This document shows, piece by piece, positions 1 through 51,321 of a stretch of 64,000 bases of DNA. The notes under the pieces were generated by a model. The model searched no databases. It saw only the letters and a list, made by a program, of their open reading frames with translations, and was not told the DNA's origin. How positions within the stretch are numbered: the stretch's first letter is position 1; each line of letters opens with the position of its first letter. The position numbers and the translations under genes were made by a program. The stretch covers positions 10,978-74,977 of the forward strand of contig CACXMS010000004.1 in assembly GCA_902768795.1 (NCBI GenBank), in the 5' to 3' direction. This DNA comes from an uncultured Eubacteriales bacterium. Its GTDB lineage: Bacteria > Bacillota > Clostridia > Christensenellales > CAG-138.

Positions 1-2606
1 AAACTCGGAACGCCTTTCACCAACGCGATCTGCAAAGTCTCCGTTTCCTCATACGCTTCATTCTTCCCGGTGTGCTTCTCGATTTTTTTGTATCCTTTGT
101 ATGTAATCTCCGTATAGGGAAGCAGCTCCCGACATTTTGCAAGCAGCGCTTCTCTGTCGCCGTTCCGATCCGGGATCGACTCCAGCAATCCTATGGCCTC
201 CGTAAGGGACATTTGCTCCGCTTCGTCGATTTGTCTGTAAACCGCATCGGCATACCGTTCGTCTGCGTCCAAAAATCCGGGAATCTTTTTGTACAATCCC
301 GCCGCTCCCGAGGGATTCTCTTCTTCCGCCAGTCTTGCATTGATATAGGTTCCGTATTGGGAAGCGTCCTGATAATCGCCGAGCGTAAAGAAGCATTTTT
401 TCGCGTCGGTCAGCGCTTCTTTTTCAAGCAAGGTCTTTCCGGCTGCATAAATGAGTTCCCGGTGTTTCTCGAGATACGATTTGGGGGCTGTTTGCAGAAT
501 ACTCACATCGATCTCGGATCCTGTCAATGCATTTCGGATCAATGCGTCATAGGATTGTTCCACGATCGCTTCCGATTCCCGATATCCGTTTAAAGCCGAA
601 AAAGCTTCGATTGCTTCCGTATATCTTTCACTTTCAAAAAGTGCAAGGGCTTCGGAATACGCTTTGTCAAGCTTCGCATTTTCGATCAGAGATTGACTGT
701 CCTGATAGTCGTCCAATCCATTCAGCAGTTCAATGGATTGATCGTACTCGCCGGCTTGATACCGTTCTTTTGCCCAAAGATACTTTCCGTTTATGACATA
801 CACCGCGCTGTCCTTATACCCGTTCAGCGCTTCAAACGCCGTGATTGCTTTCTCATACTGTCCGGCGTTATAAAGATTCATGGCAGCATTATACTTCTGA
901 TTCGGGATGATAACCGTTGTCAGCACGATGATAAGCGCAACGAAGGCAAGGATGCTCGCAAGAACGATCGCAATGATTTTCCTGCGCTTCTTGGCCGCCT
1001 TTTCTTCCGCGATCCGTTCTTCCTCCGCTTTGCGCTCGCGTTCCAGCCGATTCGCTTCTTCCTTCGCTTTGAGCGCTTCGATCTTACGCCGGCAGGCAAG
1101 AATCTTTTCCTCCGCGTCCTTCCAGCCGGGAATGCTTTCAAACAGACGGATCGCTTCCCGCTGCTTTTCGACGGAATCCACAACGGCCGCTTTCCATGCC
1201 CGGGAATAGATCCTGTTCTTCCGTTCCTCTTCCTCTTTCTGTTCGCACACGGCCGCTTGCTCTTTTGCGTCCTTATACGCCGAAATGCTTTGGAACGCGG
1301 CTGCGGCTTTTGAAAAATCATACGTGTCCTTCAGCCGGATCGCTTCCTGATAGGCGTTTTCCAGCCGCTCGTTTTCATTTCGCCCGTTGATAAAGGCGAT
1401 ATCTTCGGAAAGCTTTGCCTTCAGCTTTTCATCTCCGAAGCGGTATGCCTTTTTATAATTTCCGGAATCGTCAAACGGCTCGTCCGCGTTTTTCAGTCCG
1501 TCCCACGTCCGAACGCGCAGCTGTGCCATCAGCTTGCCGAGATATGCTTCCGCGTTTTCGGGGTCGAGGTCGAGGACTTTCTCGCAGTATTCGTCTGCGC
1601 TGTCCCATTCCCCGTCCTCCAGGAACATAAAGGCGCGGCGAAGCAGCGGCGCCGTATTGGTCTGCGCCGCCTGCTGAATGACCGTTTCGCGGACGGAGCT
1701 TTTCGGCTCGTCGGGCCTGACGATCTTTTTGATCCCGCGGATCAGATCCTGCATAAAGCCGAGCTTACTCATATCCTGCGCCTGCAGATGCGAAAACTCC
1801 TCCGGCAGATCGTAGGGGTCCATATCGCGGTACGCAGGGATCAGCGTCTTTTTCGCGCCCGCCTTAATCAGCGCAAGATACCGGCTCCACTCGTTTTTCA
1901 CCCAGACGGCGTTGAAATGCTCCGGCTTCGTGCCGAGGACGACCATTGCCTTTGCGGAGTTCAGCGCGGCAAAGATGTACGGCTCGTATGCCGTGCCAAG
2001 CTTGTCCTCAAGCGTGATGCGCGAGAAGAAGACCTTGAAGCCCTCGTTGGTGAGTTGATGATAGAGGTCTGTCGCAAGCACGGAATCCGGCGTGCGGCGG
2101 CCGTTCGTGTCGGTCTCCTTGTAGCAGATGAACACGTCAAACGGTTCTTCCTTTGCTGAGATTTCTAAGATTCCCTTCTGGATCTCGTTGATCGCCTTTG
2201 CCTCGTCCTCATAGACCGAGCGCTGCAGCGCGTCCGCGTTTTTCAGCGCGGATTTATAATCCTCGTCGTCGAAGATCGATGTGAACTGCGCGCGGTTGAC
2301 CGTCGGCACGCGGCGATGCGTTGCGGGGTCCTCCACGTACTCGATGCCGTAGCGGCACAGCACGATCGACCAGTATGTTTCGGCGTCGGTCGGATCCTCG
2401 TTTAAGATGTTCTCATAGATCGACATCGCCTTGTCGAACTCGTTGTTGCGGCGAAAATGGTTTGCGCGGTCGTAAAGATTCGTTTTGCGGTCGGAATCGA
2501 GCCGCGGCAGCGTCTGCTTCGTTCCGCAGCTGTCGCATACGCCGACCGTATCGCCCTCGTTGAACTCGATCGTGCCTCCGCACATTTTGCATTTGAAGAT
2601 TGCCAT
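1..2606 (-). CDS. Membrane-spanning TIR-domain protein (zinc ribbon, TIR, coiled coil, one TM helix, C-terminal GYKDS-type repeats); 3' end beyond window
   Basis: Own minus-strand translation from ATG 2604-2606 (AGGGGG RBS upstream) gives 868 codons with no stop to the window edge, hence absent from the ORF track. MAIFKCKMCGG..VCDSCG ribbon. FDVFICYKETD..VFFSRITLE..AVWVKNEWSRYL TIR-like core. KKRRK + IIAIVLASILAFVALIIVLTTVII TM helix. Then YEKAITAFEALNGYKDS-type repeats. Confidence 0.8.
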   Translation of the reverse strand, partial: MAIFKCKMCGGTIEFNEGDTVGVCDSCGTKQTLPRLDSDRKTNLYDRANHFRRNNEFDKAMSIYENILNEDPTDAETYWSIVLCRYGIEYVEDPATHRRVPTVNRAQFTSIFDDEDYKSALKNADALQRSVYEDEAKAINEIQKGILEISAKEEPFDVFICYKETDTNGRRTPDSVLATDLYHQLTNEGFKVFFSRITLEDKLGTAYEPYIFAALNSAKAMVVLGTKPEHFNAVWVKNEWSRYLALIKAGAKKTLIPAYRDMDPYDLPEEFSHLQAQDMSKLGFMQDLIRGIKKIVRPDEPKSSVRETVIQQAAQTNTAPLLRRAFMFLEDGEWDSADEYCEKVLDLDPENAEAYLGKLMAQLRVRTWDGLKNADEPFDDSGNYKKAYRFGDEKLKAKLSEDIAFINGRNENERLENAYQEAIRLKDTYDFSKAAAAFQSISAYKDAKEQAAVCEQKEEEERKNRIYSRAWKAAVVDSVEKQREAIRLFESIPGWKDAEEKILACRRKIEALKAKEEANRLERERKAEEERIAEEKAAKKRRKIIAIVLASILAFVALIIVLTTVIIPNQKYNAAMNLYNAGQYEKAITAFEALNGYKDSAVYVINGKYLWAKERYQAGEYDQSIELLNGLDDYQDSQSLIENAKLDKAYSEALALFESERYTEAIEAFSALNGYRESEAIVEQSYDALIRNALTGSEIDVSILQTAPKSYLEKHRELIYAAGKTLLEKEALTDAKKCFFTLGDYQDASQYGTYINARLAEEENPSGAAGLYKKIPGFLDADERYADAVYRQIDEAEQMSLTEAIGLLESIPDRNGDREALLAKCRELLPYTEITYKGYKKIEKHTGKNEAYEETETLQIALVKGVPS

Positions 2607-2681
2607 GCTGCCCCCTGTTGATCCTGTTCGCTTGCTTCCTGAACCTGCGCTTTGAACGCGCTTCTGCCCGAAAAGCCGGTC

Positions 2682-4184
2682 TTATGAAATGGTGTTCAGA
2701 TCGATCCAGAGCGCCGGGCGGACGGCGCCGTTCATGTTGCGAAGATAGCTGCCGAACGCGTTGACGCTGCCGTCGCTGCCGACCAGCGAAACGTAGTTCA
2801 CGCTGGTGCCGGACGTTCTCAGCCACCACCAGCTCGTGCCCTGCTCGCCGACAAACTCCTTGTTGCTCACCGCTGCGCCCTGCGCGATTGCGTACGCGGT
2901 CGCAACGCCTTTTCGCTGCTCATCCGAGGAAAAATACAGGTTCGCCTCCCGGATGCCGAGCACGAACACCTTATCGGGCGTATTCGGGCCGGCGGGCGTG
3001 CTGCGATAGGACGGGTTTTTCTCCCCGATAACCGTAGTGGTCCGGATCATCTTCTGCTCGTCCGCATTGAACGCGGCGCCCAGGAAGGTTCCGTTCAGCC
3101 AGCCGCGCAGAGAACAGGTGCTCCAGTTCGCGCTCGCAAAGACGGAATGGAACGGCTGACAGTCCAGCGCGTACCGGCTGATCACGAGAATCCGGTTGTT
3201 ATCCTTGGAAAGGACGGTCCATTCGATCGGCTCTTTCCCGTCTGCGGCGTCGTTGTCCTGCTCATAGCGGCCGAAAAGAACCGTATCCCCTTTCTTGGCC
3301 GTTTTGAGCGTGTCCCGATAATACAGCGGCATGGCTTCCTCTATCTTCGCCGCGCTCTCCCGGTAGCCGGACAGCGCCGTAAACGCTTCGATCGCTTCGC
3401 GGTACGAGCCGCCCTCCAGCAGCGCTTCCGCCGCGGCATACCGCTGATCGAGAATCGCATTTTGGCAGTTTACGATCTGCTGTGCGCTGTCCTTGTATCC
3501 GTCCAGCGCCGCAAACGCCGCGATCGCTTCCTCAAACTGTCCGGCTTCGTACAGCGCCAGCGCCGCGCCGTATCTGCATTCCGTGATCCTGTCTTCGCTG
3601 TCCTTATATCCGTTCATCGCCGTAAACGCCGCGATCGCTTCCTCAAACCGCCCGGCTTCATACAGCGCCGCCGCATCGTCGTACTTCTGATCCCGGATCG
3701 CGGTCTCGCAAGCTTCGATCTGCTGTTCGCTGTCCCGATACCCGTTCATCGCCGTAAACGCCGCGATCGCTTCCTCGTACCGCCCGGCTTCATACAGCGC
3801 CGCCGCATCGTCGTACTGCCGGTCCCGGATCGCCGTTTTGCACGCTTTTATCCGCTCTTCGCTGTCCTTGTATCCGTCCATCTCCGTAAACGCCGCGATC
3901 GCTTCCTCGTACTGCCCGGCTTCCGAAAGCGCGACCGCCTTGCCGTAATTGAGCTCCGGGAGGACGAACCGGACGGCCAGCACAGCCAGCGCGGCGATCA
4001 GCACGACGCACGCAACGACGACGCCGACAACGATCCCTTTCGATTTGCGCTTTTTTCCTGCGCCGCCGGTCCCCTCCGGCAGCGTCTGCTTCGCGCCGCA
4101 CGCTTTGCAAACGCCTTCCGTCTCTCCCTCGTTCCACTCGACCGTGCCGCCGCACTTATCGCATCTGATCTTCGGCATTTTCAT
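2682..4184 (-). CDS. Zinc-ribbon / single-TM / repeat protein with C-terminal DUF6273-like domain (paralogous scaffold to the TIR neighbour)
   Basis: 500-aa ORF; ATG 4184 with GGGAGAA RBS. RCDKCGGTVEWNEGETEGVCKACGAKQTLP ribbon, TM GIVVGVVVACVVLIAALAVLAV, five YEEAIAAFTxMxGYKDS repeats. C-terminal GDTVLFGRYEQD..IEWTVL..WSTCSLRGWLN resembles DUF6273 (recalled, not searched). Confidence 0.8.
   Translation of the reverse strand: MKMPKIRCDKCGGTVEWNEGETEGVCKACGAKQTLPEGTGGAGKKRKSKGIVVGVVVACVVLIAALAVLAVRFVLPELNYGKAVALSEAGQYEEAIAAFTEMDGYKDSEERIKACKTAIRDRQYDDAAALYEAGRYEEAIAAFTAMNGYRDSEQQIEACETAIRDQKYDDAAALYEAGRFEEAIAAFTAMNGYKDSEDRITECRYGAALALYEAGQFEEAIAAFAALDGYKDSAQQIVNCQNAILDQRYAAAEALLEGGSYREAIEAFTALSGYRESAAKIEEAMPLYYRDTLKTAKKGDTVLFGRYEQDNDAADGKEPIEWTVLSKDNNRILVISRYALDCQPFHSVFASANWSTCSLRGWLNGTFLGAAFNADEQKMIRTTTVIGEKNPSYRSTPAGPNTPDKVFVLGIREANLYFSSDEQRKGVATAYAIAQGAAVSNKEFVGEQGTSWWWLRTSGTSVNYVSLVGSDGSVNAFGSYLRNMNGAVRPALWIDLNTIS
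3321..3935 (-). repeat. Tandem ~132-nt (44-codon) intragenic repeats, about 5 units, two nearly identical at DNA level
   Basis: Units starting near 3601 and 3733 match almost base for base (..cgttcatcgccgtaaacgccgcgatcgcttcctc..cccggcttcatacagcgccgccgcatcgtcgtac..). Flanking units are more diverged. Confidence 0.8.
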
Positions 4185-8345: not shown

Positions 8346-9425
8346 ATGATTCGCAAAACCGCCCGCTTCCAAATTGTCATCTGGCTGCTTGCCGCGCTGT
8401 TTCTTCTGGGCTCCGCCGTCGGATGTACGCAAAAGCAGGACGCAGATCTTTCGGCGCTGACGCAAACGTTGATTTCCGAGCGCAACGAACTGCAGAACGA
8501 ACTGAGTAGCGCGCAGGCCGAGCTCGGCAGCGCAAAGCAGGAAATTGAATCGCTCAAAGCGGCTCTGACCGAAGCGCAGTCCGTCGAGCCCACGGTCGTG
8601 ACCGAAACGAAGGAGGTCGTTACCGAGGTTCCGGTCAAGTACGCATACGGCATGAACTGCACGATCAACGGGGAACGCACTGTAAAACTTTCCGACGGCA
8701 GCGCAGAATATTCCTGCAAAGCGGATTCGATCGAAGGATACGTTTTCGATCATTGGGTCGTCGGGGAAAAAGTCGATGAGGTCTCCGGCCCGGAAGCTTC
8801 GTTTACGCTGTCCGACACTACGGTGGTTCAGGCCGTCTTCCATCAGCGCCATATCGTCAAAACGGTCAACTGCCATCTGCAGTTTATGAACGCAGGCGGC
8901 AACGCGAAGGGCTCGAATTATACCGAGTTCGATTTTGAGGAGGATTATGTCAATCCCGTCACGAACGCCAAGTGCGCGGGCGGCAAGATCAGCTTTTATC
9001 TGACGGCCGACATTCCCAAGGGCAAGGAAGTCGATTACTGGCTCATCAACGGGGTGAAATATCAGTACCCGAACAACGTGACGAAGTTCCGCGTCGAAAA
9101 CCTCGACGAAAACACGGTTTATGAAGTCGTTTTCAAGGGCGAAACCAAAAAGACGACCCCCACGACGTATTATAACGTAACCTGCACAAACTGTACGTTC
9201 TCGGGCGGCGGCGCTTCCGGCAGCTCCGGCAAGGTTCCGGCCGGCACAACAATTACCATCAAGGGCGTATCGTATTCGAGCGAGGCATATTTCACCGGGA
9301 CGCCGGGATCGGTAGACCGTCATTTCACGACGCCGACCTCGCACAGCGGGAAACAGTATGTTTTCACCTATACCTATGTCGTGAACAGCGATACCACCGT
9401 TTACTTCCGCGGAGTCGTCAACTGA
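8346..9425 (+). CDS. Secreted lipoprotein with coiled coil and InlB-B-repeat/Flg_new-like beta domains
   Basis: 359 aa. Signal peptide plus lipobox LLGSAVGC. Heptad-like ELQNELSSAQAELGSAKQEIESLKAAL. GYVFDHWVVGEKV and DYWLINGVKY motifs resemble Listeria-Bacteroides repeats. Confidence 0.6.
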   Translation: MIRKTARFQIVIWLLAALFLLGSAVGCTQKQDADLSALTQTLISERNELQNELSSAQAELGSAKQEIESLKAALTEAQSVEPTVVTETKEVVTEVPVKYAYGMNCTINGERTVKLSDGSAEYSCKADSIEGYVFDHWVVGEKVDEVSGPEASFTLSDTTVVQAVFHQRHIVKTVNCHLQFMNAGGNAKGSNYTEFDFEEDYVNPVTNAKCAGGKISFYLTADIPKGKEVDYWLINGVKYQYPNNVTKFRVENLDENTVYEVVFKGETKKTTPTTYYNVTCTNCTFSGGGASGSSGKVPAGTTITIKGVSYSSEAYFTGTPGSVDRHFTTPTSHSGKQYVFTYTYVVNSDTTVYFRGVVN

Positions 9426-9448
9426 TCGCGATTCCCGAACAGCTTATG

Positions 9449-9491
9449 AAAGCGGGTCTTTCGGAACGATTGTTCCGAAAGACCCGCTTTT
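9449..9491 (+). terminator. Rho-independent terminator
   Basis: 19-bp stem AAAGCGGGTCTTTCGGAAC, loop GATT, GTTCCGAAAGACCCGCTTT, then T run. Confidence 0.8.
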
Positions 9492-9505
9492 GCGAAATGT
9501 TGCGA

Positions 9506-9643
9506 CAGGCCGGCAAGAACGGGCTTGGAATCCGCGTTTTCGGCGCATGATCGAAGAAAAGACGGTTTTTCCGTCTTTTCCTCCTGCAAGTATTCTTTTC
9601 CCAAACCCGCCAAAAATGGTCCGGACCCGTTATTGGCAGTCTG
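9506..9643. repeat. MITE-like intergenic element, copy A (138 bp)
   Basis: Imperfect 19-bp terminal inverted repeats: CAGGCCGGCAAGAACGGGC on the left, reverse complement of the right end CAGACTGCCAATAACGGGT. Internal hairpin GAAAAGACGG/CCGTCTTTTC. Homologous to 32062-32253 and 50055-50145. Confidence 0.7.
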
Positions 9644-9651
9644 AATTCCGA

Positions 9652-9867
9652 TTATTCGCCGTTCGGCTCCTCATAAAGATATTCGTCGTCCTCGAACGTG
9701 AAATCGTCGGTTTCATCCGCGATTGCGTCGTTGTAATCGTTGTACAGCAGCTCCCGATAGTACGTATCGCGCGTGGCAAGCTCGATGGGATCCAGCTTGC
9801 CGTCGCGGTCGAAATCAAACGACTCCGGGCCGATTTCGGGGTTCCGTTCACTTTCCGACATACGCAT
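9652..9867 (-). CDS. Small acidic protein with one canonical EF-hand loop
   Basis: AAGGAGG RBS inside the end of the upstream gene, then ATGCGTATG. DFDRDGKLDPIE fits the 12-residue EF-hand loop (D1 D3 D5 G6 L8 D9 E12). C-terminus is D/E/Y-rich. Confidence 0.55.
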   Translation of the reverse strand: MRMSESERNPEIGPESFDFDRDGKLDPIELATRDTYYRELLYNDYNDAIADETDDFTFEDDEYLYEEPNGE

Positions 9868-28672: not shown

Positions 28673-30145
28673 ATGAAAGTACTGTTTTGTGCAAGCGAAT
28701 GCTTCCCGTTCGTGAAGACCGGCGGGCTTGCCGACGTTGTCGGTTCGCTTCCGAAGGAGCTTCTGAAACAGGACTGTGACGTCCGCGTCATGATCCCGAA
28801 ATACCGCGTGATCGACTGGTCGTATATTACCGCGATGGAGCACATCTGTCATTTCCAGCTCCCGTTCGGAGACGGCAGTGTTTTCTGCGGGATCGACTCG
28901 CTGGAATATGAGGGCGTTCGCTTCTATTTTATCGACAACCTTGCGATGTTCGGACACGACGGCGTTTACACGGGCGACGAGCAGGAGGGCTACCGCTATG
29001 CGTTCTTCTGCCGCGCAGTGCTCGACGCGCTGCCGAAAGTCGATTTCTTCCCCGACGTGATCCACTGCAACGACTGGCAGACCGGCCTGATTCCCGCGCT
29101 GCTGAAGATGCAGTATGCCAACGATCCGGATTACGCGAAGATCAAGACGGTCTACACGATCCACAACCTCCGGTTCCAGGGGCTCTACCGCTGGGATCGG
29201 ATCTCCTCCGTGCTGCATCTCGACGGTCGGTATTTCACGCCCGACGGGCTTGAATTCTACGGTCTGCTGTCGTTCATGAAGGGCGGTATCATCTACGCCG
29301 ACCGCATCACGACGGTCAGCCCGACGTATGCCCGGGAGATTTGCATGGAATACTACGGCGAACGGCTCGACGGCCTGCTCCGTGCGCGCAGCTACTCGCT
29401 GTCCGGCATTCTGAACGGCATCGACACGCAATCCTACAACCCGGCGACCGACCCCGCGCTGCCGGAGCATTACAGCATCCGCAACCCGCGCGTCAAAAAG
29501 TCCATCAAGACGGCGCTGCAAAAGGAGCTGGGGCTTGCCGAGCGCGACGTTCCGATGCTTTCGATCGTTTCACGTCTGACCGATCAGAAGGGGCTCGACC
29601 TGATCGCCTGCGTGCTGAACGAGATCCTCTCGCTCGACGTGCAGTTTGTGATCGTCGGTCTCGGCGAGCAGCGTTATACGGATATGCTGCGCGACGCGCA
29701 GCGCCGTCACCCCGGCGCGGTCGTGCTGTGCAGCGTGCTCGATGAAAAGCTCGCCCGCCGCGTTTACGCCGCGTCCGACCTGTACCTGATGCCGAGCCAG
29801 TTCGAGCCGTGCGGTCTGAGCCAGATGATCGCCATGCGGTACGGCACGATCCCCGTCGTGCGCGAAACCGGCGGCCTCAAGGATTCCGTTCTCCCGTACA
29901 ACAAGTACACCGACGAGGGCACGGGCTTCTGCTTTATGAACTACAACGCGCACGAGATGCTGTATCAGATCGAAGACGCCGTGCGCTACTGGCGCAACGA
30001 TCCCGCCATGTGGAACCGCCTCGTGCATCGCGCGATGAAGGAGGACTTCAGCTGGAAGGCCTCCGCAAAGAAATATCTTGCGCTCTATAAAGAAATGCTC
30101 GGCCTTTCCCCTCGCGCCCGCAAGAAGGCGCCTGTGCAGGCATGA
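28673..30145 (+). CDS. glgA: Glycogen synthase (ADP-glucose type)
   Basis: 490 aa. MKVLFCASECFPFVKTGGLADVVGSLP, PSQFEPCGLSQM. Confidence 0.95.
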   Translation: MKVLFCASECFPFVKTGGLADVVGSLPKELLKQDCDVRVMIPKYRVIDWSYITAMEHICHFQLPFGDGSVFCGIDSLEYEGVRFYFIDNLAMFGHDGVYTGDEQEGYRYAFFCRAVLDALPKVDFFPDVIHCNDWQTGLIPALLKMQYANDPDYAKIKTVYTIHNLRFQGLYRWDRISSVLHLDGRYFTPDGLEFYGLLSFMKGGIIYADRITTVSPTYAREICMEYYGERLDGLLRARSYSLSGILNGIDTQSYNPATDPALPEHYSIRNPRVKKSIKTALQKELGLAERDVPMLSIVSRLTDQKGLDLIACVLNEILSLDVQFVIVGLGEQRYTDMLRDAQRRHPGAVVLCSVLDEKLARRVYAASDLYLMPSQFEPCGLSQMIAMRYGTIPVVRETGGLKDSVLPYNKYTDEGTGFCFMNYNAHEMLYQIEDAVRYWRNDPAMWNRLVHRAMKEDFSWKASAKKYLALYKEMLGLSPRARKKAPVQA

Positions 30146-32034
30146 CGTTCTACGAAAAAATCATACAGGAACTGGAGAGGGCCGAACAGTCCCTCTCCAC
30201 GGTATATTCATTCGCCTTTCGCTTCACTGAGGAAGCGCTTTTCGAGTGGGAGGAGCAGGAACAGTTTTGCTCAATGACCTACGGAGAAGCGCAAAAGCGC
30301 ATTGAAGCCGCGACGGGCGCGCTCCATGCGCTGCTGACGGATTATCCGAAAGGCAGCCCGATCGGGCTGTATCTGCCGAACGGACCGGACTGGGTGATTG
30401 CTTTCTGGGCGATTCTGCGGTCCGGGTACCGACCGCTGCTGCTGAATACGATCGCCCCGAAAGAATTGGTCGAAGGATGCCTTCGGGAAGCCGGCGCATC
30501 GGTTTGCATCGGCGCCGAAGCGTTTGCAAACGTGCGCTGTCTTGCGCCGGACGCGCTGACCGGCGGCGACGGTTCCTATTGCGACTGGGCGGACGAAATC
30601 CTCCTCTGCACCTCCGGAACGACCGGCGCGCCGCGCCTGATCGCGTTTGACGGGAAAGCCGTTTGCGCGCAGATCCGCAACTCCGGGTTTGCGCTGCAGA
30701 AAAATCATTCCATCGCGTCCTTCGTGCACGGCAAGCTGAAGCTGCTTGCATTTTTACCGTTCTATCATATCTTCGGTCTGTCCGCCGTTCTGCTCTGGTT
30801 CTCCTGCTTCGGACGGACATTCGTTCTGCTGCCGTCGCTCTCTCCCGAAGCGATCGGCCGCGTCTGCCGTCAGCACGAGGTCACGCACATCTTCGCTCTG
30901 CCGGTCTTTTGGAACGCGGTCGCGGATCAGGTTCTGCGCGCTGCCAAACGCACCGGGCAATCGGAAAAGCTCGAACGCGGCATACGCCTCTCGCTCGCGC
31001 TTCAAAACGGGCCGATCCCTTCGCTCGGCCGCTTTCTCGCCCGTAAGCTCATGCGTTCCGTACAGGAACAGGCGCTCGGAACGGCCGTGCGGTTCTGTAT
31101 CTCGGGCGGCGGCGCTTTGCGTAACGATACGCTGCGCCTGATCAACGGAATCGGGTATCCGCTTTACAACGGCTACGGCATGACCGAGATCGGCATTGCC
31201 TCGGTCGAGCTTCGGCAATCCGCCAAAGCGCGGACGGAGGGTTCGATCGGTCAGCCGTTTCCCTCGATCCGGATCGATTGCTCCGGCGAAACGATGCGCG
31301 TATGCGGACGAACATGCTATACCGCCGAATACCGAAACGGCGAACGCATCCCGCACGACCCGATGGAATGGTTCGACACGCAGGACTGCATCCATCAGGA
31401 GGAAAACGGCTCGCTGTTTTTTGCGGGGCGCAGCGACGATATGCTCAACGGCGCGAACGGCGAACGCATCTCCCCCGCGCTGCTGGAATCCGCATTCGGA
31501 AGCCCGCTGATCGCGGCGCTGGCGGCCGTTTCCGAAAACGGCGAGCCCGTTCTGGTCGTCGAACCGAAGCAGCGCAACGCTTACGCGCTTGCCGCGCTGT
31601 CCGAGGAGCTGTATGAAAAAAACGCGGCGCTGCCCTCCGCGTACCGTGTCCGGAAGATCTACTTTTCTTTGGATCCGCTCCCGCTTGCGCTGACGCAAAA
31701 GGTGCAAAGCGGCGCGGTGCGCCGCGGCCTTGCGGACGGAACGCTGCGCGTAAAGGAAGCCGATCGAGCCGATGCACCTGTCGCGTCGGCATTTGACGCC
31801 GGACTGGAGGAAATCCTGCCGCGCGTGATCGCCGTTTTCCGGTCGCTCACCGGTTCGGAGGTTCTGCCCGACAGCCATTTTCGCTATGACCTCGGCGGCG
31901 ATTCGCTGACCTATTTTGCCCTCGTCGAACAGCTTTCCGGGGAGTTTCAGGTTACGATCGATCCCTCCGCCGGAACCGATCTCTCGACCCCGCGCGATTT
32001 TGCGATCTATATCTTAAAAGAAGGCGAACGGTAA
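30142..32034 (+). CDS. Stand-alone adenylation (ANL/AMP-binding) enzyme fused to a carrier-protein (phosphopantetheine) domain
   Basis: 630 aa. ATGA overlap with the glgA stop. LCTSGTTGAPR (A3), YNGYGMTEIG (A5), GRSDDMLNGANGERISP (A8). C-terminal DLGGDSLTYF carrier motif (Ser codon 31904-31906). Confidence 0.8.
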   Translation: MTFYEKIIQELERAEQSLSTVYSFAFRFTEEALFEWEEQEQFCSMTYGEAQKRIEAATGALHALLTDYPKGSPIGLYLPNGPDWVIAFWAILRSGYRPLLLNTIAPKELVEGCLREAGASVCIGAEAFANVRCLAPDALTGGDGSYCDWADEILLCTSGTTGAPRLIAFDGKAVCAQIRNSGFALQKNHSIASFVHGKLKLLAFLPFYHIFGLSAVLLWFSCFGRTFVLLPSLSPEAIGRVCRQHEVTHIFALPVFWNAVADQVLRAAKRTGQSEKLERGIRLSLALQNGPIPSLGRFLARKLMRSVQEQALGTAVRFCISGGGALRNDTLRLINGIGYPLYNGYGMTEIGIASVELRQSAKARTEGSIGQPFPSIRIDCSGETMRVCGRTCYTAEYRNGERIPHDPMEWFDTQDCIHQEENGSLFFAGRSDDMLNGANGERISPALLESAFGSPLIAALAAVSENGEPVLVVEPKQRNAYALAALSEELYEKNAALPSAYRVRKIYFSLDPLPLALTQKVQSGAVRRGLADGTLRVKEADRADAPVASAFDAGLEEILPRVIAVFRSLTGSEVLPDSHFRYDLGGDSLTYFALVEQLSGEFQVTIDPSAGTDLSTPRDFAIYILKEGER

Positions 32035-32061
32035 CGATCTGTTGAAAAAATGCGCTGAGAA

Positions 32062-32253
32062 CAGACTGGCAAGAATGGGCTTGGAAGCCGGTTTCTTCGC
32101 CCGAAGGCTGTACTGACGTTACGCCGAGAGCGAAAAACCGGCTAATTTTGCGGCAAATAATCGAAGAAAAGCGCGTTTGTGCGCTTTTCGTCCTTCAGGA
32201 ATTCTTTTCACATAGCTGCCGCAAAATGGTCCGGGCCCGTTATTGACGGTCTG
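32062..32253. repeat. MITE-like intergenic element, copy B (192 bp, with extra internal hairpin)
   Basis: Terminal inverted repeats: CAGACTGGCAAGAATGGGC on the left, reverse complement of the right end CAGACCGTCAATAACGGGC. Hairpin GAAAAGCGC/GCGCTTTTC. Extra stem 32087-32100 with 32130-32142. Right end overlaps the MFS stop codon. Confidence 0.7.
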
Positions 32254-33571
32254 CTGTTTGCAGCTTGCTTTTCGTAATCAGAAGATACCCGACCAGCGCG
32301 ACGATCACCAGGCCGAGAACGACAAGCGCCGCCAGAAAGATGTCCGCGCTCGGAAGGAACGAGGTCGTGCCGTCGCTGTTTACGATCTCCTCCGCGCCTT
32401 CGAGCACCGCCGCGCCGATCGCCGGACCGACAATGCCCGGAATCAATACCTGCGAAAGAATGCGAAGCCCCTGGAACCGGCCCGCCATGTGCTCCGGCGT
32501 ATGGTTGCGAAGCTGCGTGCCGAACACCGCCATGCCCGAAAGGTAGCCCGACATCATCAGCAGCGAGCCGATGAACACCGGGATTCGCATTCCGATCCCC
32601 TCGGCAGGAATGACCGCCGGAACCAGATAGAGCAGCACGAACCCGAGCGCAAGCATCGAAAGCGCGGGCAGTACGATCCGCCGGAACCCGTGCCGGTCCG
32701 TCAGCCGTCCGAAGAAGAAGGTTACGACCGCGGCAAGGATGATCGCCGGCGCCATGATCAGCACATAATCCGCCATGCCGAGCGTCTTTTCATAGTAAAT
32801 GATCAGATACGGCATATAGACCTGAATCGCCGTCGAAAAAACCATATAGGCAAGCATGGAAAGATACAGCTTCGGATTCTTTCCGACAACGTCCGGTCGG
32901 AACCCGTACAGGATCGTCGGGAAATACCCGAGGTTATCCGGATTTTTCACCGGCGCTTCCTCGACCAGGAAGAACCCGAGGACGCCGATCAGCAGCACAA
33001 GACCGCCGATGATCGCATAAATGACCGTCCAGCTCTCGGCCAGATCGAGGTTGAAGCCCATGAATCCCCCGAACACGACGAGGATCGAGATCAACGGCAT
33101 CATCGAGTTGATCCCTTCCGCCGCGCCGCGGTTCGTTTCGTCGGTCGAATCCGTCAGCCACGCGTTGAACGCCGCATCGTTTGCCGACGATCCGAAAAAC
33201 GTCATCACGCAGTCCATAATGATGACAAGCGTTACGCCGATGCTCGCCGCGCCGACCGTCGACCCGAACAGCGCGGAGATCACGTCGAGCCGGATCAGCG
33301 CAAAGCTCAGGATCGACACGCCCCACGCGATATAGCCGAAGCACATGAACACCTTGCGTTTGCCGAGCCGATCGGACAGCGCGCCCATCAGCACGGTCGT
33401 CACGGTCGCGGCGATCGCGCTCGCGGTGACCATCGTCGCAATCTCGGATGCGGACGCATGGAACATCTTGTAAATATAGACGTTGAAATACATGTTTTCC
33501 ACGACCCATGCGATCTGCCCGGTCAGCGAAAAGATGATCAGCGTCAACCAGAATTTCCGATTTTTCTTCAT
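32240..33571 (-). CDS. MFS transporter (substrate unknown)
   Basis: 443 aa, about 12 hydrophobic segments. MFS motif A GALSDRLGKRK. GAAGGAGGGGAG RBS. Confidence 0.8.
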   Translation of the reverse strand: MKKNRKFWLTLIIFSLTGQIAWVVENMYFNVYIYKMFHASASEIATMVTASAIAATVTTVLMGALSDRLGKRKVFMCFGYIAWGVSILSFALIRLDVISALFGSTVGAASIGVTLVIIMDCVMTFFGSSANDAAFNAWLTDSTDETNRGAAEGINSMMPLISILVVFGGFMGFNLDLAESWTVIYAIIGGLVLLIGVLGFFLVEEAPVKNPDNLGYFPTILYGFRPDVVGKNPKLYLSMLAYMVFSTAIQVYMPYLIIYYEKTLGMADYVLIMAPAIILAAVVTFFFGRLTDRHGFRRIVLPALSMLALGFVLLYLVPAVIPAEGIGMRIPVFIGSLLMMSGYLSGMAVFGTQLRNHTPEHMAGRFQGLRILSQVLIPGIVGPAIGAAVLEGAEEIVNSDGTTSFLPSADIFLAALVVLGLVIVALVGYLLITKSKLQTADRQ

Positions 33572-47531: not shown

Positions 47532-48025
47532 TCGTTTGTTCCTTTCAGGACCGACCATGCGCTTAGCAGCCGGTCGAACGAGCACGCCGCGTTTGCGGGA
47601 CTCGTGGATGGCAGTACAACGGCGTCCCGCCCGAGGACGGAACGCTGATATTTCCGATAATAAGCGTCCGCGGTTCGTCCGTTCACGTAGATCGCACGGA
47701 TCGGCGCCGCGGCAAGGATCGGTCTTAAATCGTTCGGCACGACATCGCGGATGGAGCTGTCCGCCGAACCCGCAACCGTGCAGGAGCCGATCACATCCCA
47801 CAGCGCGATGTGATTCTGCTCGAGCAGCGCGATCTTTTCCGGAACGGAGCCCGGAACCGGTGCGTCAAACAGCGCCGCCAGCACGCGCCAGAACCGATTC
47901 TGCGGATGACCGTAAAAGAACATCTGCTCCCGGGACTTCACCGAAGGAAAGCTCCCGAGGATCAGGATCCCGGAATCCGGCCGGTAAAACGCCGGAAACG
48001 GATGAACGACTGCTTCCGGCTTCAT
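47528..48025 (-). CDS. Uracil-DNA-glycosylase-superfamily protein (hypoxanthine/deoxyinosine DNA glycosylase type)
   Basis: 165 aa. ILILGSFPSVKS..FFYGHPQNRFW motif. 4-nt overlaps with both neighbours. Confidence 0.7.
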   Translation of the reverse strand: MKPEAVVHPFPAFYRPDSGILILGSFPSVKSREQMFFYGHPQNRFWRVLAALFDAPVPGSVPEKIALLEQNHIALWDVIGSCTVAGSADSSIRDVVPNDLRPILAAAPIRAIYVNGRTADAYYRKYQRSVLGRDAVVLPSTSPANAACSFDRLLSAWSVLKGTNE

Positions 48026-49908
48026 TGCAGACGCAGGCAGTAGAGCCGCGGCGAGGATCCCGTCGTCGCAACGCAGATGTAGTTTCCGTACGCAACCGGG
48101 GTCGCCTCAATGCTGTCGCCGAGATTCAGCGCATACAGGGAGTTTTCCCCGGGATTCACCGCGCGATACAGACGGATCGCGCCGACGCGGTCGCAGGTGA
48201 TCAGATACGCGTCGCCGCGCGCAGTGTAGACAAGCAGCGGCGAGGAAACATAATCCGCCGCGCCGATCTGCTTGATCTCCCACCGCACTTCGCCGCTTGC
48301 GCGCTCATACGCGACGACCTTGCCGCCGTACGTATACTTCACATTGCCTTCTTCGTCCACGGTATCGACCGCAAGGCCGTAATACGCGCAGATCAGAAGG
48401 TCGCCGACCGTTCCGCGGCCGAGCGCAGGCGTCGCTTTGCAGCCGCCCTTCATGCTTTTCCCGGTGATCGGATCGAGAACCTGCACAAGCTGTTTCTGCT
48501 CCCAGACGATCTGTCCGGTCAGACCGTTGATTTTCTTCGTATAGCAATAGCCGTAGCCGCGCGGCAGGGATTCGTCCTGCGCGTCGGTCTGCCCCGATGC
48601 GTACAGCCAAACCGTCCCCGCGCCGCCGTCCTCCTCGAGGACGATCGAAGCGTCCGCGTCATTGCCGAGATCGACGACAAACTGCAGCTTCAGCGTGTTC
48701 ACGTCGACGCACTGCAGCCGTCCGCCGTTGTCCGCCAGATACAGATAGTTGCGGAACGCGGTCACGCTCGATTCGTAGCCGTACCAGCGCTTGTCCGCCG
48801 CCGCGCCCGTCGTGTAATCGGCCGCCTGATAGCGGTACTTGATCTTGTCGCCCGGCGTGATCGAGAGCGTGTGCGCGGCCGCATCGTAAGCGGTGTTCAG
48901 CCTGATCAGGTACAGAAGCCCGTTTTCACTCGGCCAGATCAGCGTGTCTTCAATGATCAGCGGGCTGGAATCGAACGCCGACCAGTTATCGCGCCGCGCG
49001 GTATGGTCCTTGCCCGAAACGATCGTCTGCGCGGTGTTTGTCACAAGATTCACGCCGAAGCACGCGGACTTGTTTGTCTCATACGACGTTCCCTGCCCGA
49101 TATACAGCATCGGAATGCCGCGCGGATCGAGCGTCGGGGAACCGAACATCGACGCGCCGACGCTGATCGGCTCGCGCGTTTTGTTCCCGCTGTCCAGCTC
49201 ATAAAAGTAGATCATGCCGTCTGCGGCGCATTGAATGACCTCGGTCAGCGAATCGCCGCGCTTATAGGTATCGAGCACGCCGATCGCCTGCAGCGTTTCG
49301 CCTTCCCACGTCACGATCAGCGGCTGACCGGTCCAGGTCGCGCCCGAAAACGTCCCGAGCCCGCTGAGGCCCTGCGACCAACGCTCCGTCAGCGTTTGCA
49401 TGGAAACGTTCGCCGTCCCGTATGCGCGCGAATTGCGGTAGTTGTTGCCCGAAAACGTCGTAATGCCCTTGACAGACGTATATTCCGCATCCGTGCCGAA
49501 CAGGAAATCCGTTTCGACCGGATTCGAGGTATAGGTGTCCTCACGGTTGTTGCGCCGGATATCATAGGTGAACCCGAGGTTCGCCGGCTTTGCGGCGTCG
49601 ATCGGATTGACCACATACGCAAGATCCTTGTCCAGCGCAGGCGGCGCGTCGATCACGGTCGCGTTGGTGCTGTCGGTTTTGGAAACGGCGCTTTGCGTGT
49701 CGGTGCCGGACGATTCGGTTTCGATCACCGTACTGCCGAGCGTCAGCGCGTCGGGCGATCCGACGCATCCCTTCAGCGCAGCGCAGGACGAGCTTCCGTA
49801 TACGATCGCCACGACCAGCAGCGTCACGCTGATCAGCAGGATGAATACAGAAGCCACAAACAGCAGAAATCGCGGATGAATGGTTCTCGTTCGATCGCGT
49901 CTTGACAT
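48022..49908 (-). CDS. Membrane-anchored PQQ-like/BamB-like beta-propeller repeat protein
   Basis: Start trimmed to MSRRDRTR (GGAGG RBS). TM FLLFVASVFILLISVTLLVVAIVYG. Repeated beta-propeller-like blades (..GRLQCVDVNTLKLQF.., ..GKVVAYERASGEVRWE..). Confidence 0.6.
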   Translation of the reverse strand: MSRRDRTRTIHPRFLLFVASVFILLISVTLLVVAIVYGSSSCAALKGCVGSPDALTLGSTVIETESSGTDTQSAVSKTDSTNATVIDAPPALDKDLAYVVNPIDAAKPANLGFTYDIRRNNREDTYTSNPVETDFLFGTDAEYTSVKGITTFSGNNYRNSRAYGTANVSMQTLTERWSQGLSGLGTFSGATWTGQPLIVTWEGETLQAIGVLDTYKRGDSLTEVIQCAADGMIYFYELDSGNKTREPISVGASMFGSPTLDPRGIPMLYIGQGTSYETNKSACFGVNLVTNTAQTIVSGKDHTARRDNWSAFDSSPLIIEDTLIWPSENGLLYLIRLNTAYDAAAHTLSITPGDKIKYRYQAADYTTGAAADKRWYGYESSVTAFRNYLYLADNGGRLQCVDVNTLKLQFVVDLGNDADASIVLEEDGGAGTVWLYASGQTDAQDESLPRGYGYCYTKKINGLTGQIVWEQKQLVQVLDPITGKSMKGGCKATPALGRGTVGDLLICAYYGLAVDTVDEEGNVKYTYGGKVVAYERASGEVRWEIKQIGAADYVSSPLLVYTARGDAYLITCDRVGAIRLYRAVNPGENSLYALNLGDSIEATPVAYGNYICVATTGSSPRLYCLRLQ

Positions 49909-50054: not shown

Positions 50055-50145
50055 CAGCGAAAAGCGCATTTTTGCGTTTTTCATCCTATAAGTATTCTTT
50101 TCCAAAATCCGCCGAAAACGGTCCTGGCCATTTCCTGACAGTCTG
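50055..50145. repeat. MITE-like intergenic element, copy C (right-half fragment)
   Basis: Aligns with the right ~90 bp of copies A and B (GAAAAGCGCA/TGCGTTTTT hairpin, TATTCTTTTCC, GGTCCTGGCC, ACAGTCTG end). No matching left inverted repeat seen. Confidence 0.6.
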
Positions 50146-50178
50146 AAGCGGCTGCCGCAGGAATGCGGCAGCCGCTTC
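50145..50178 (-). terminator. GC-rich hairpin downstream of the ABC ATPase gene
   Basis: 14-bp stem GAAGCGGCTGCCGC, loop AGGAAT, GCGGCAGCCGCTTC. Weak U tract, so efficiency is uncertain. Confidence 0.45.
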
Positions 50179-50196
50179 GCTTCAGTTTGTATTCGA

Positions 50197-51321
50197 TCAG
50201 AACAGGAGGTTCTTTTCGGTTTCGGGATCGAAGAAGTGCATGACTTTGCCTTCGAAGGTGACATAGAGCTTCGCGCCGCTGACCATGCCTTCGCGCTGCT
50301 GGGGCGTAAGGTCGATCGTCGGGATGCGGACGATGAGGCGCGTGCCGTCCTCGGTGTAAACGTGCAGATGCAGCTCGGAGCCCATCATTTCATTGACCTC
50401 GAGGGTTACCGGGATCGCATGCTCGCCCTGCTCCTTCGCAAGGACGATGTGCTCCGGACGAACGCCGAGCAGAATCTCTCCGCCCTCTACGTTCTTTTCC
50501 TTGAGCAGCTTGCCCTTTTCGCCGTCCACTTCGATCTTCGCGCCGAACGGCGTGACATAGTACTTGTCGCCCGCCTTGATCATGTTCGTGCGGAGAACGT
50601 TCATCTTCGGCGCGCCGATGAATTCTGCGACGAAGAGGTTTTCCGGCATTTCGAACACTTCCGTCGGGGTGCCGACCTGCATGATGTAGCCGTCCTTCAT
50701 GATGACGATGCGGTCGCCGAGCGTCATGGCCTCGGTCTGATCGTGCGTAACATAGATGAACGTCGTATCGAGCTTCTGACGGAGCAGGATGATCTCGGCA
50801 CGCATCTGGTTACGCAGCTTTGCGTCAAGGTTCGAAAGCGGTTCATCCATCAGGAAGACCTTCGAGTCGCGCACCATCGCACGGCCGATCGCAACACGCT
50901 GACGCTGTCCGCCGGACAGAGCGCGCGGTTTACGCATCAGGTACTGGGTGATGCCGAGAACCTCGGCAGCGTTCGTAACCTTGTTGTAGATCACGTCTTC
51001 CGGCATCTTCTGCAGACGGAGGGAGAACGCGATGTTGTCAAATACGGTCATGTGCGGATACAGCGCGTAGTTCTGGAAAACCATCGCGATGTTCCTGTCC
51101 TTCGGCTGGAGATCGTTGACGACCTCGCCGTCGATTTCGACCGTACCGTCGCTGATCTCTTCCAGACCGGCGACCATACGAAGCGTCGTCGACTTGCCGC
51201 AGCCGGACGGTCCGACAAATACGACAAACTCTTTATCCTTGATGTCGAGGTTGAAGTCGTGTACGGCGACGACGTTGTTATCGTATACTTTCTTTACGTT
51301 TGTAAGTTTTACACTTGCCAT
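50197..51321 (-). CDS. msmK: Sugar ABC transporter ATP-binding protein (MsmK/MalK/UgpC type)
   Basis: 374 aa. GPSGCGKST, LSGGQRQRVA, VFLMDEPLSNLD. C-terminal TOBE-like domain. Confidence 0.9.
   Translation of the reverse strand: MASVKLTNVKKVYDNNVVAVHDFNLDIKDKEFVVFVGPSGCGKSTTLRMVAGLEEISDGTVEIDGEVVNDLQPKDRNIAMVFQNYALYPHMTVFDNIAFSLRLQKMPEDVIYNKVTNAAEVLGITQYLMRKPRALSGGQRQRVAIGRAMVRDSKVFLMDEPLSNLDAKLRNQMRAEIILLRQKLDTTFIYVTHDQTEAMTLGDRIVIMKDGYIMQVGTPTEVFEMPENLFVAEFIGAPKMNVLRTNMIKAGDKYYVTPFGAKIEVDGEKGKLLKEKNVEGGEILLGVRPEHIVLAKEQGEHAIPVTLEVNEMMGSELHLHVYTEDGTRLIVRIPTIDLTPQQREGMVSGAKLYVTFEGKVMHFFDPETEKNLLF

Follow-up and report, generated by a model that had tools for sequence, protein, structure and literature searches.

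Three intergenic stretches of the window, by which the whole 64-kb stretch of DNA analysed here is meant, resemble one another, and the first of them, at positions 9506-9643, raises the question of what kind of sequence they represent: ordinary terminators, a structured RNA, or a repeat dispersed through the genome. The first-pass annotation had taken them for an unannotated family of miniature inverted-repeat elements, a view now supported by copy number, discrete boundaries, truncated and deleted forms, and a second host species. The sequences probably form a family, not described before, of small non-coding interspersed repeats with nested palindromes (MITE/REPIN-like), present in dozens of copies and in at least two rumen species, for which spread by a transposase acting in trans is the default assumption. 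The data fit a new family within a familiar kind of small mobile DNA, non-autonomous and spread in one small lineage.

Copies of the element and their boundaries

BLASTN comparison within the window revealed homology among copy A (9506-9643), copy B (32062-32253) and copy C (about 50057-50145), with identities of 76-79% and E values from 1e-13 to 1e-19, as had been proposed for these positions. Copies A and B match at 78.7% over 108 nt (E 1e-19), A and C at 77.8% over 90 nt (E 3e-15), and B and C at 76.1% over 88 nt (E about 1e-13). A separate match of 29 nt, at 86%, connects the left end of A with that of B. A profile search with nhmmer found no copy in the window beyond these three, each of which is on the + strand.

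The three copies represent different forms of the element. The full form, generally about 192 nt long, corresponds to copy B (32062-32253, + strand, 192 nt), defined by its boundaries and fold and located between the convergent genes 30142-32034 (+, AMP-binding/PP-binding) and 32240-33571 (-, MFS). Copy A (9506-9643, + strand, 138 nt), placed between the stops of a + gene at 8346-9425 and a - gene at 9652-9861, is a deletion form without the roughly 54 nt, corresponding to helix P2, which follow the left arm. Copy C (50057-50145, + strand), delimited by alignment and gene calls, is a right half only, in which the left half is absent and the right arm (50122-50145) has diverged, leaving the P4 hairpin (50059-50082) and the conserved block.

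The element ranges in size from 138 to 197 nt and contains neither a transposase nor a conserved reading frame. Six-frame translations differ between copies and contain stops, which agrees with its earlier description as non-coding; a protein-coding mini-gene was rejected, no frame being conserved, and comparison of the translated element with a protein collection, made for spurious reading frames, gave no candidate. Conserved blocks are shared by the copies, as had been noted, except that copy B reads AATTCTTTTC and not TATTCTTTTC.

In order to evaluate copy number, metagenome contigs of four cattle-gut runs containing this genome were aligned to copies A and B, accepting 80% likeness. With copy A as reference, depth is 8-17 in the unique flanks and climbs to 270-540 over 9573-9614, and 32-40 contigs per run contain the core; with copy B, 34-46 contigs per run are found. 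The sequence is therefore a multi-copy family, detected in 32-46 contigs per run, with a depth excess of at least 30-fold and discrete boundaries. On copy B, depth stays at the level of a single copy as far as 32051, increases within the bin 32052-32070, and has returned to that level from 32261 on. Full-length pieces of other contigs span 32061-32253 at about 80% identity; loose contig ends cluster at 32053-32066 and 32253/4, and divergence from the window sets in at 32061/2 and 32253/4. Sequence preceding 9537 in the other copies matches the long form B, which makes the long form the common one. The depth of most of the listed contigs (about 4.5-17) is similar to that of the window genome in the same run, and most copies are therefore probably located in this genome. 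In all four runs the Logan contigs of the window genome end at 9576, inside copy A, as is typical of a repeat; the family thus breaks short-read assemblies.

Six distinct loci were read directly. Contigs fetched by means of the window proteins extend about 10 kb beyond each end of the window, and one of them contains a full copy D (L128:13271-13468, + strand), about 25 nt past the right end of the window, between convergent Peptidase_M23 and AzlD genes. A scan with the pattern of the P2/P3 junction, the only pattern scan to yield a true relative, identified the rumen MAG RUG416, in which copy E (L131:5346-5538, - strand) is full-length and copy F, at the start of the contig, is a right half; E and F lie 5 kb apart, in opposite orientations. 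In run X1 the RUG416 sequence is represented by a few near-identical short contigs at a depth of about 2.5-3.5, versus 8 for the window genome. This low, distinct depth indicates that RUG416 is a different organism, and that at least two species carry the family.

No copy was found in about 170 kb of more distant relatives, at about 20 loci of relatives with a MalK 69-86% identical, or at two examined loci of the next relatives of a window protein, which are about 60% identical. Plasmid, phage and viral-contig collections gave no match; three pattern scans of viral contigs produced no homologue, and three exact-pattern scans of the genome collection, using the conserved block, produced no real copy. 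Matches raised by pattern searches were discarded after inspection: a conserved-block match on L001 was weak and partial, 13 matches in the genome collection were about the number due to chance and none was homologous, and a match from the metagenome scan, L082, fell by chance in a coding region. Flanking proteins and public runs assign the window to an uncultured Clostridia bacterium of the cattle gut (rumen). In the species collection its closest genomes are rumen MAGs of an Oscillospiraceae-like kind, with 86% identity for a conserved ABC ATPase. The next relatives of the less conserved nucleoside phosphorylase are only about 60% identical, and the host species appears rather isolated in the databases for this reason. 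As the family seems limited to one or two species, it might be used as a strain or species marker in rumen metagenomes.

Two arrangements at the right end of the element were also observed. In contigs of runs X3 and X6, aligned on 9583-9644, a 28-nt hairpin, GGCGCTTTTCACAAAAGCGCCTGTTCTG, comes next to the right end of a copy, and beyond this hairpin a partial second copy starts at the equivalent of 9583, which gives a full-plus-partial tandem. In copy D, the last eight bases, CAGTCTGA, are directly followed by CTGTCTGA, a 7-of-8 repeat of the end (L128:13460-13477), which may be a footprint or due to chance.

Fold and base-pair changes

Copy B is predicted to fold into one closed structure of -89.4 kcal/mol (z -6.8), and its opposite strand into one of -82.1 kcal/mol (z -6.7). 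In this architecture, the terminal arms pair to form helix P1, which encloses the branched P2, the P3 stem and the central hairpin P4. A repeat finder, independent of the fold, detected nested inverted repeats in copies A, B, D and E.

Terminal inverted repeats had been described as imperfect and 19 bp long; they are real and imperfect, and their length is 24 nt, following the pattern 5'-CAGACTGGCAAGAATGGG... / ...CCCGTTATTGACAGTCTG-3'. The repeat finder reports arms of 18-24 nt at 78-85% Watson-Crick complementarity, and 20-22 of the 24 positions pair when G-T is allowed. The consensus of the left strand of P1 is CAGACTGGCAAGAATGGG and that of the right strand, as reverse complement, CAGACTGTCAATAACGGG; 93% of the P1 cells are paired with G-U allowed. 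Position 8 of the arm is a mismatch in all four full copies, and position 12 is G-A in three of them and G-T in E.

The helices can be followed in the individual copies. Repeat finder and pairing place the arms of copy A, all features being on the + strand, at 9506-9529 (CAGGCCGGCAAGAACGGGCTTGGA, 5' strand of P1) and 9620-9643 (TCCGGACCCGTTATTGGCAGTCTG, 3' strand). The 5' strand of its P3, GTTTTCGGCG (9536-9545), is predicted to pair with 9608-9616. Fold energies delimit P4 at 9556-9580, with the sequence GAAAAGACGG-TTTTT-CCGTCTTTTC; an A-tract, a GC core and a T-tract give it the shape of a two-way terminator, with -15.8 kcal/mol on the + strand and -19.6 on the -, and it is not flagged by a simple terminator scan. 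P4 is followed, at 9581-9619, by the most conserved block of the family (CTCCTGCAAGTATTCTTTTCC..AAA..CCGCC.AAAAYGG), supported by the multi-copy depth peak and by alignments, mostly predicted unpaired and including the 3' strand of P3.

In copy B, also on the + strand, pairing places the left arm at 32062-32085 (5' strand of P1), and the right arm, 3' strand of P1, occupies 32230-32253. The branched P2 hairpin, AGCCGGTTT...AAACCGGCT, which carries a hairpin at its tip and is the part missing in copy A, covers 32086-32143 according to both fold and repeat finder. In the predicted P3 (32146-32226), TTTTGCGGCA (32146-32155) pairs with TGCCGCAAAA (32217-32226), enclosing the conserved block and P4, which is found by fold energies and repeat finder at 32166-32189 as GAAAAGCGC-GTTTGT-GCGCTTTTC.

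A hairpin of the form GAAAAG-stem-CTTTTC with a covarying inner stem had been the basis of the original covariation claim, and is indeed present in every copy. It corresponds to P4, GAAAAG-core-CTTTTC, whose inner stem varies from copy to copy (GACGG, GCGC, GCGCA, GGCGTTTTT, GGC) and is always complementary. The claim could be extended to four nested helices. Consensus folding of a six-sequence alignment by RNAalifold was spoiled by the half copies; the test was therefore based on the four full copies (A, B, D, E), with a structure of 58 pairs that was drawn up by hand from one of these copies. Among 210 cells, 95.2% are paired, a level reached by none of 500 shuffles. Eight pairs are changed on both sides, a number equalled by 3 of 500 shuffles, and 12 cells are changed on both sides, equalled by none. 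Slid controls, in which partners were moved by 1-3 columns, gave 38-47% paired cells and 0-3 double-changed pairs. Column pair 17/190, for example, reads U-G, U-A, G-U and C-G across the four copies; column pair 24/183 is G-C or A-U, and column pair 21/186 is C-G, U-A or G-C. In these four sequences, base-pair changes preserve all four helices at levels above both the shuffled and the slid controls.

A hand count of wobble cells on the + strand gives 10 G-U versus 6 A-C, a difference which is not significant and too weak to name a functional strand; the consensus fold is -70.7 kcal/mol on the + strand versus -64.2 on the -. The best-conserved block, CCTGCAAGTATTCTTTTCC..AAA.CCGCCGAAAAYGG, falls mostly within the predicted unpaired stretch between P4 and P3. 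We infer that the conserved pairing reflects either selection on a folded single strand, such as an RNA 3' end or single-stranded DNA in transposition, or hairpin-templated repair during replication. The latter could yield paired changes without selection.

Gene context, strain differences and origin of the family

Every copy is located behind a gene. The genes on either side of A, B and D are called as convergent pairs, and E stands between convergent open reading frames. Among the copies of the window, all of which had been placed at gene 3' ends with two between convergent genes, A and B are those in the convergent setting and C is not: it lies behind malK (50197-51321, -) and ahead of a gene on the same strand (48022-49908, -), and is antisense to both. 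Copies are spaced by 14-22 kb, between convergent housekeeping genes. The right end is close to the stop of the gene running towards it, at 8 nt for A, 9 nt for D and about 25 nt for E, and overlaps the gene by 14 nt at B. The right arm of copy B supplies the last four codons and the stop of the MFS gene (32240-32253), with the stop codon at 32240-32242, as seen from sequence and gene call. In RUG416 a 438-aa reading frame crosses the whole of copy E and stops at a TGA formed at the element end (L131:5346-6662). Stop codons and C-terminal residues lent to neighboring genes in this way mislead gene calling, and element-derived tails may occur.

Locus-specific hairpins, outside the family, stand beside several copies. 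For four of the seven known right ends (C, E, F and one copy in runs X3/X6) a strong hairpin of this kind, with energies from -13.7 to -29.5 kcal/mol, directly abuts the element; at C it is GC-rich, covers 50144-50179 and reaches -29.5 kcal/mol. At copy A, a strong two-way terminator hairpin (9447-9493, -38.2 kcal/mol) ends 13 nt left of the element. A separate native terminator hairpin is found alongside copies A, C, E and F, where the element is consequently not needed as a terminator, and no other hairpin exists between the convergent genes at B and D.

Copies A and C occur in all strains fetched, the former in 10 of 10 strain contigs. Contig L115 lacks copy B, and so do the dominant contigs in runs X3, X6 and X25. 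The element-free allele at B has 76 nt in place of 223 nt (32036-32258), and contains a canonical terminator, CCGGGCTGCGCGGATCACCGCGCAGCCCGG followed by TTTCTTTC, of -31 kcal/mol. The site is thus polymorphic, and the element stands where other strains have a normal terminator. Since the two alleles differ by replacement and not by a clean insertion, the comparison of filled and empty sites at B yields no junction or target duplication, and mobility is inferred and not seen. No flanking direct repeat of any length was found at the four full copies, where old or very short target-site duplications could escape detection. A transposase or a solitary inverted repeat was not found in about 100 kb of this genome, nor was a parent insertion sequence with the same ends, either there or in pattern scans of the genome and viral collections.

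Several features of the surrounding genes were recorded in passing. In L115, which has no copy B, the MFS gene is called as two pieces of 250 and 197 aa (L115:2341-3677), which suggests either a frameshift in this strain or an error in its assembly. In another contig (L114:1-1120) the region upstream of the HSP20 gene has, in place of the MFS and AMP-binding genes, a 206-aa gene followed by about 500 nt of non-coding sequence. The 69-aa gene at 9652-9861 (-), unassigned to a family and ending 8 nt from copy A, is called in all strains and overlaps the end of an upstream 470-aa gene by 14 nt. At the left end of the window (about 1-4184, with L116:589-5833) two large TPR proteins, one with a TIR_2 domain (929 aa) and the other with DUF6273 (498 aa; 454 aa in one strain), are found beside a metallo-beta-lactamase-fold gene matching the Anti-Pycsar Apyc1 family; several strain contigs break in this region, which may be a variable defence-type locus. 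In a distant relative (L139:6757-16305) an integrase and an island containing AIPR, NOV_C, SNF2-helicase and HRDC genes come after the nucleoside phosphorylase gene, an arrangement which looks like an integrated defence island unrelated to the repeat.

The P4 hairpins have energies of -9 to -20 kcal/mol on both strands. Their GC core of 4-5 bp is flanked by A4-5 and T4-5, and the T-run continues on the - strand (CTTTTCTTCGAT). The simple terminator scan flags P4 in copy D only, on the - strand; it misses A, B and C for two reasons, in that it assigns the T-run to the stem and that the GC core has only 4-5 bp. In this strain P4 of copy B is the only terminator-shaped hairpin between its two convergent genes. 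A role of P4 as a two-way terminator is plausible from its shape and position, and the element may be the sole terminator at some convergent gene pairs.

Spread of the family can be pictured as follows. A transposase supplied in trans, by default one of the classic type acting on the terminal repeats, would move the copies; these would persist where insertion is least harmful, that is between the stop codon and the terminator of convergent genes; P4 could then end transcripts arriving from both directions, and the complete fold could shield mRNA 3' ends. A transposase that reads hairpins in single-stranded DNA would account better for the absent duplications and for the hairpins next to the element. 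Combining these steps, the element might be a self-spreading terminator or 3'-end module, inserted by such an enzyme at the foot of terminator hairpins, with P4 taking over both convergent genes and the original terminator being lost (B, D). This combined model is unlikely on present evidence. If true, it would imply a new pair of MITE and transposase in Clostridia, hairpin-directed choice of target, and a measurable role in 3' ends genome-wide.

A related variant, which concerns the mechanism of mobility and not the identity of the repeat, is that of REPIN-like elements moved as single-stranded DNA by a single-copy tyrosine transposase (Y1, RAYT/IS200-type) reading hairpins, for which REPINs provide the precedent (PMC3116915). 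The lack of target-site duplications and the compensatory changes which keep all helices are in its favor. The four copies in or just beside the window share one orientation, and the abutment of four of seven right ends on locus-specific hairpins hints at hairpin-directed insertion; if real, target choice beside terminator hairpins would amount to an undescribed transposition mechanism. However, no RAYT or IS200-type gene was found in the roughly 100 kb examined, the opposite orientations of E and F, 5 kb apart, do not conform to a strict strand rule, REP doublets are much shorter and less branched than the element, and REPINs are known mainly from Proteobacteria. The variant is accordingly held at a low probability.

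The same covariation over four helices would be expected if the element were primarily a functional structured RNA (a gene for a small RNA, or an element of the 3' UTR), under selection for the RNA fold and copied round the genome, with the DNA repeat being secondary. That the most conserved block is predicted unpaired, as expected of a binding site, is consistent with this explanation, and so are the slightly better consensus fold of the + strand (-70.7 vs -64.2 kcal/mol) and its excess of G-U over A-C cells (10 vs 6), a bias which is, however, not significant. Transcription was evaluated in RNA contigs, which are sparse and without direction. Four RNA-seq (metatranscriptome) runs, in which the neighboring gene is sparsely detected, contained no contig on any copy at 80% likeness, which speaks against a small RNA of high abundance. 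Two other runs carry the label 'metatranscriptomic WGS' and behave like DNA. One RNA contig of 151 nt connects the 3' end of the MFS gene with the right half of copy B as far as the 3' side of P4; it fits an mRNA ending in the element, but is a single read. A discrete small RNA, suggested as an alternative in the first-pass annotation, thus has little in its favor: no promoter-like site was found in A or B, contexts vary and no neighbor gene is conserved, copy C is antisense to both neighbors, the stop codon is overlapped at B, and half copies and a deleted form persist. A search of Rfam returned no hit in the window, and at relaxed thresholds gave only weak matches, driven by the hairpin and below the gathering threshold. 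A primary role as a structured RNA is therefore considered quite improbable.

That the copies are ordinary, unrelated intrinsic terminators, similar by chance or convergence, or an assembly artefact, is already refuted and practically without probability: the central hairpin alone is terminator-like and alone drives the weak Rfam matches, but about 60 nt of non-hairpin sequence and the matching arms are conserved (E down to 1e-19), the excess of depth, at least 30-fold and sharply bounded, recurs in independent runs, and the same copies are found in many independent ENA and NCBI assemblies.

Comparison with known systems

The preferred reading of the sequences as a family of small interspersed repeats was compared with known classes of structured elements. 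A riboswitch or leader was rejected, since the element is behind genes and not ahead of them. Integron attC sites are recognized by RYYYAAC...GTTRRRY core sites and by arrays of co-oriented cassettes; on anatomy the element was rejected as one, its ends being off this pattern and its copies 14-22 kb apart. CRISPR and tRNA-derived elements were rejected on anatomy only, and an element derived from the ends of IS200/IS605 because the two ends of that family do not pair together.

The element had been called Correia-like. Correia elements of Neisseria have 26-bp repeats, a TA duplication, an IHF site and outward promoters. The likeness consists in being miniature, bounded by inverted repeats, intergenic and able to affect neighboring transcripts, and holds as an analogy only: the sequence of the 26-bp repeat differs, and neither the TA duplication nor the IHF site nor the outward promoters were seen. 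The ends of the element, CAGACTGG.../...CAGTCTG, with flanks that are not TA, indicate that it is not a Correia member.

Good catalogues of small structured repeats exist for a few cultured pathogens, and hardly any for the uncultured Clostridia which dominate the rumen. MITEs in bacteria are shorter than 200 nt, carry no transposase gene, have terminal inverted repeats around a core, are dispersed in intergenic copies and fold into one long stem-loop (Delihas 2011, PMC3184786). The element has the same size class, well below a general limit of about 400 bp for MITEs, and the same terminal repeats, dispersal of copies and stem-loop fold; MITEs also have flanking direct repeats and a parent insertion sequence with matching ends, of which the former were not found at the four full copies and the latter was not found in the roughly 100 kb searched or in the pattern scans. 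By description it can be likened to bcr1 of the Bacillus cereus group, a repeat of about 155 bp in which compensatory changes keep a cruciform-like fold and whose distribution is not conserved between strains (PMC3184786). Both are found in Firmicutes and have similar size, a compensated fold and variation between strains. The 5-bp direct repeats at the flanks of bcr1 and its known transcription (PMC3184786) are features not shown for the element, and homology between the two is unlikely, given the different lineage.

REP and REPIN sequences with their RAYT partners are extragenic palindromes, often between convergent genes, without target duplication, with paired changes and with persistence in a lineage (PMC3116915, PMC3337134). 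Palindromy, siting between convergent genes, lack of target duplication, a hairpin kept by paired changes and persistence in a lineage are shared with the element. A REPIN consists of two REPs of about 25 nt separated by a short spacer, whereas in the element the arms pair but stand 140 nt apart, and the spacer of about 140 nt contains three helices of its own.

Repeats placed behind convergent genes have precedent (PMC3049150, PMC3184786). SPRITE of Streptococcus pneumoniae is terminator-shaped, enriched at convergent 3' ends and without an established target duplication; it consists of one 18-bp duplex, carries a long U-rich tail, and has no more than AAAA/TTTT at its ends (PMC3049150). RUP and BOX have a tight fold with paired terminal repeats, RUP being associated with TA duplications and an IS630-type partner (PMC3049150), and each of SPRITE, RUP and BOX is limited to one species and its closest relative (PMC3049150). 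Compared with these three, the element described here combines a paired 24-nt terminal repeat with three inner helices, in a genome of 58% G+C.
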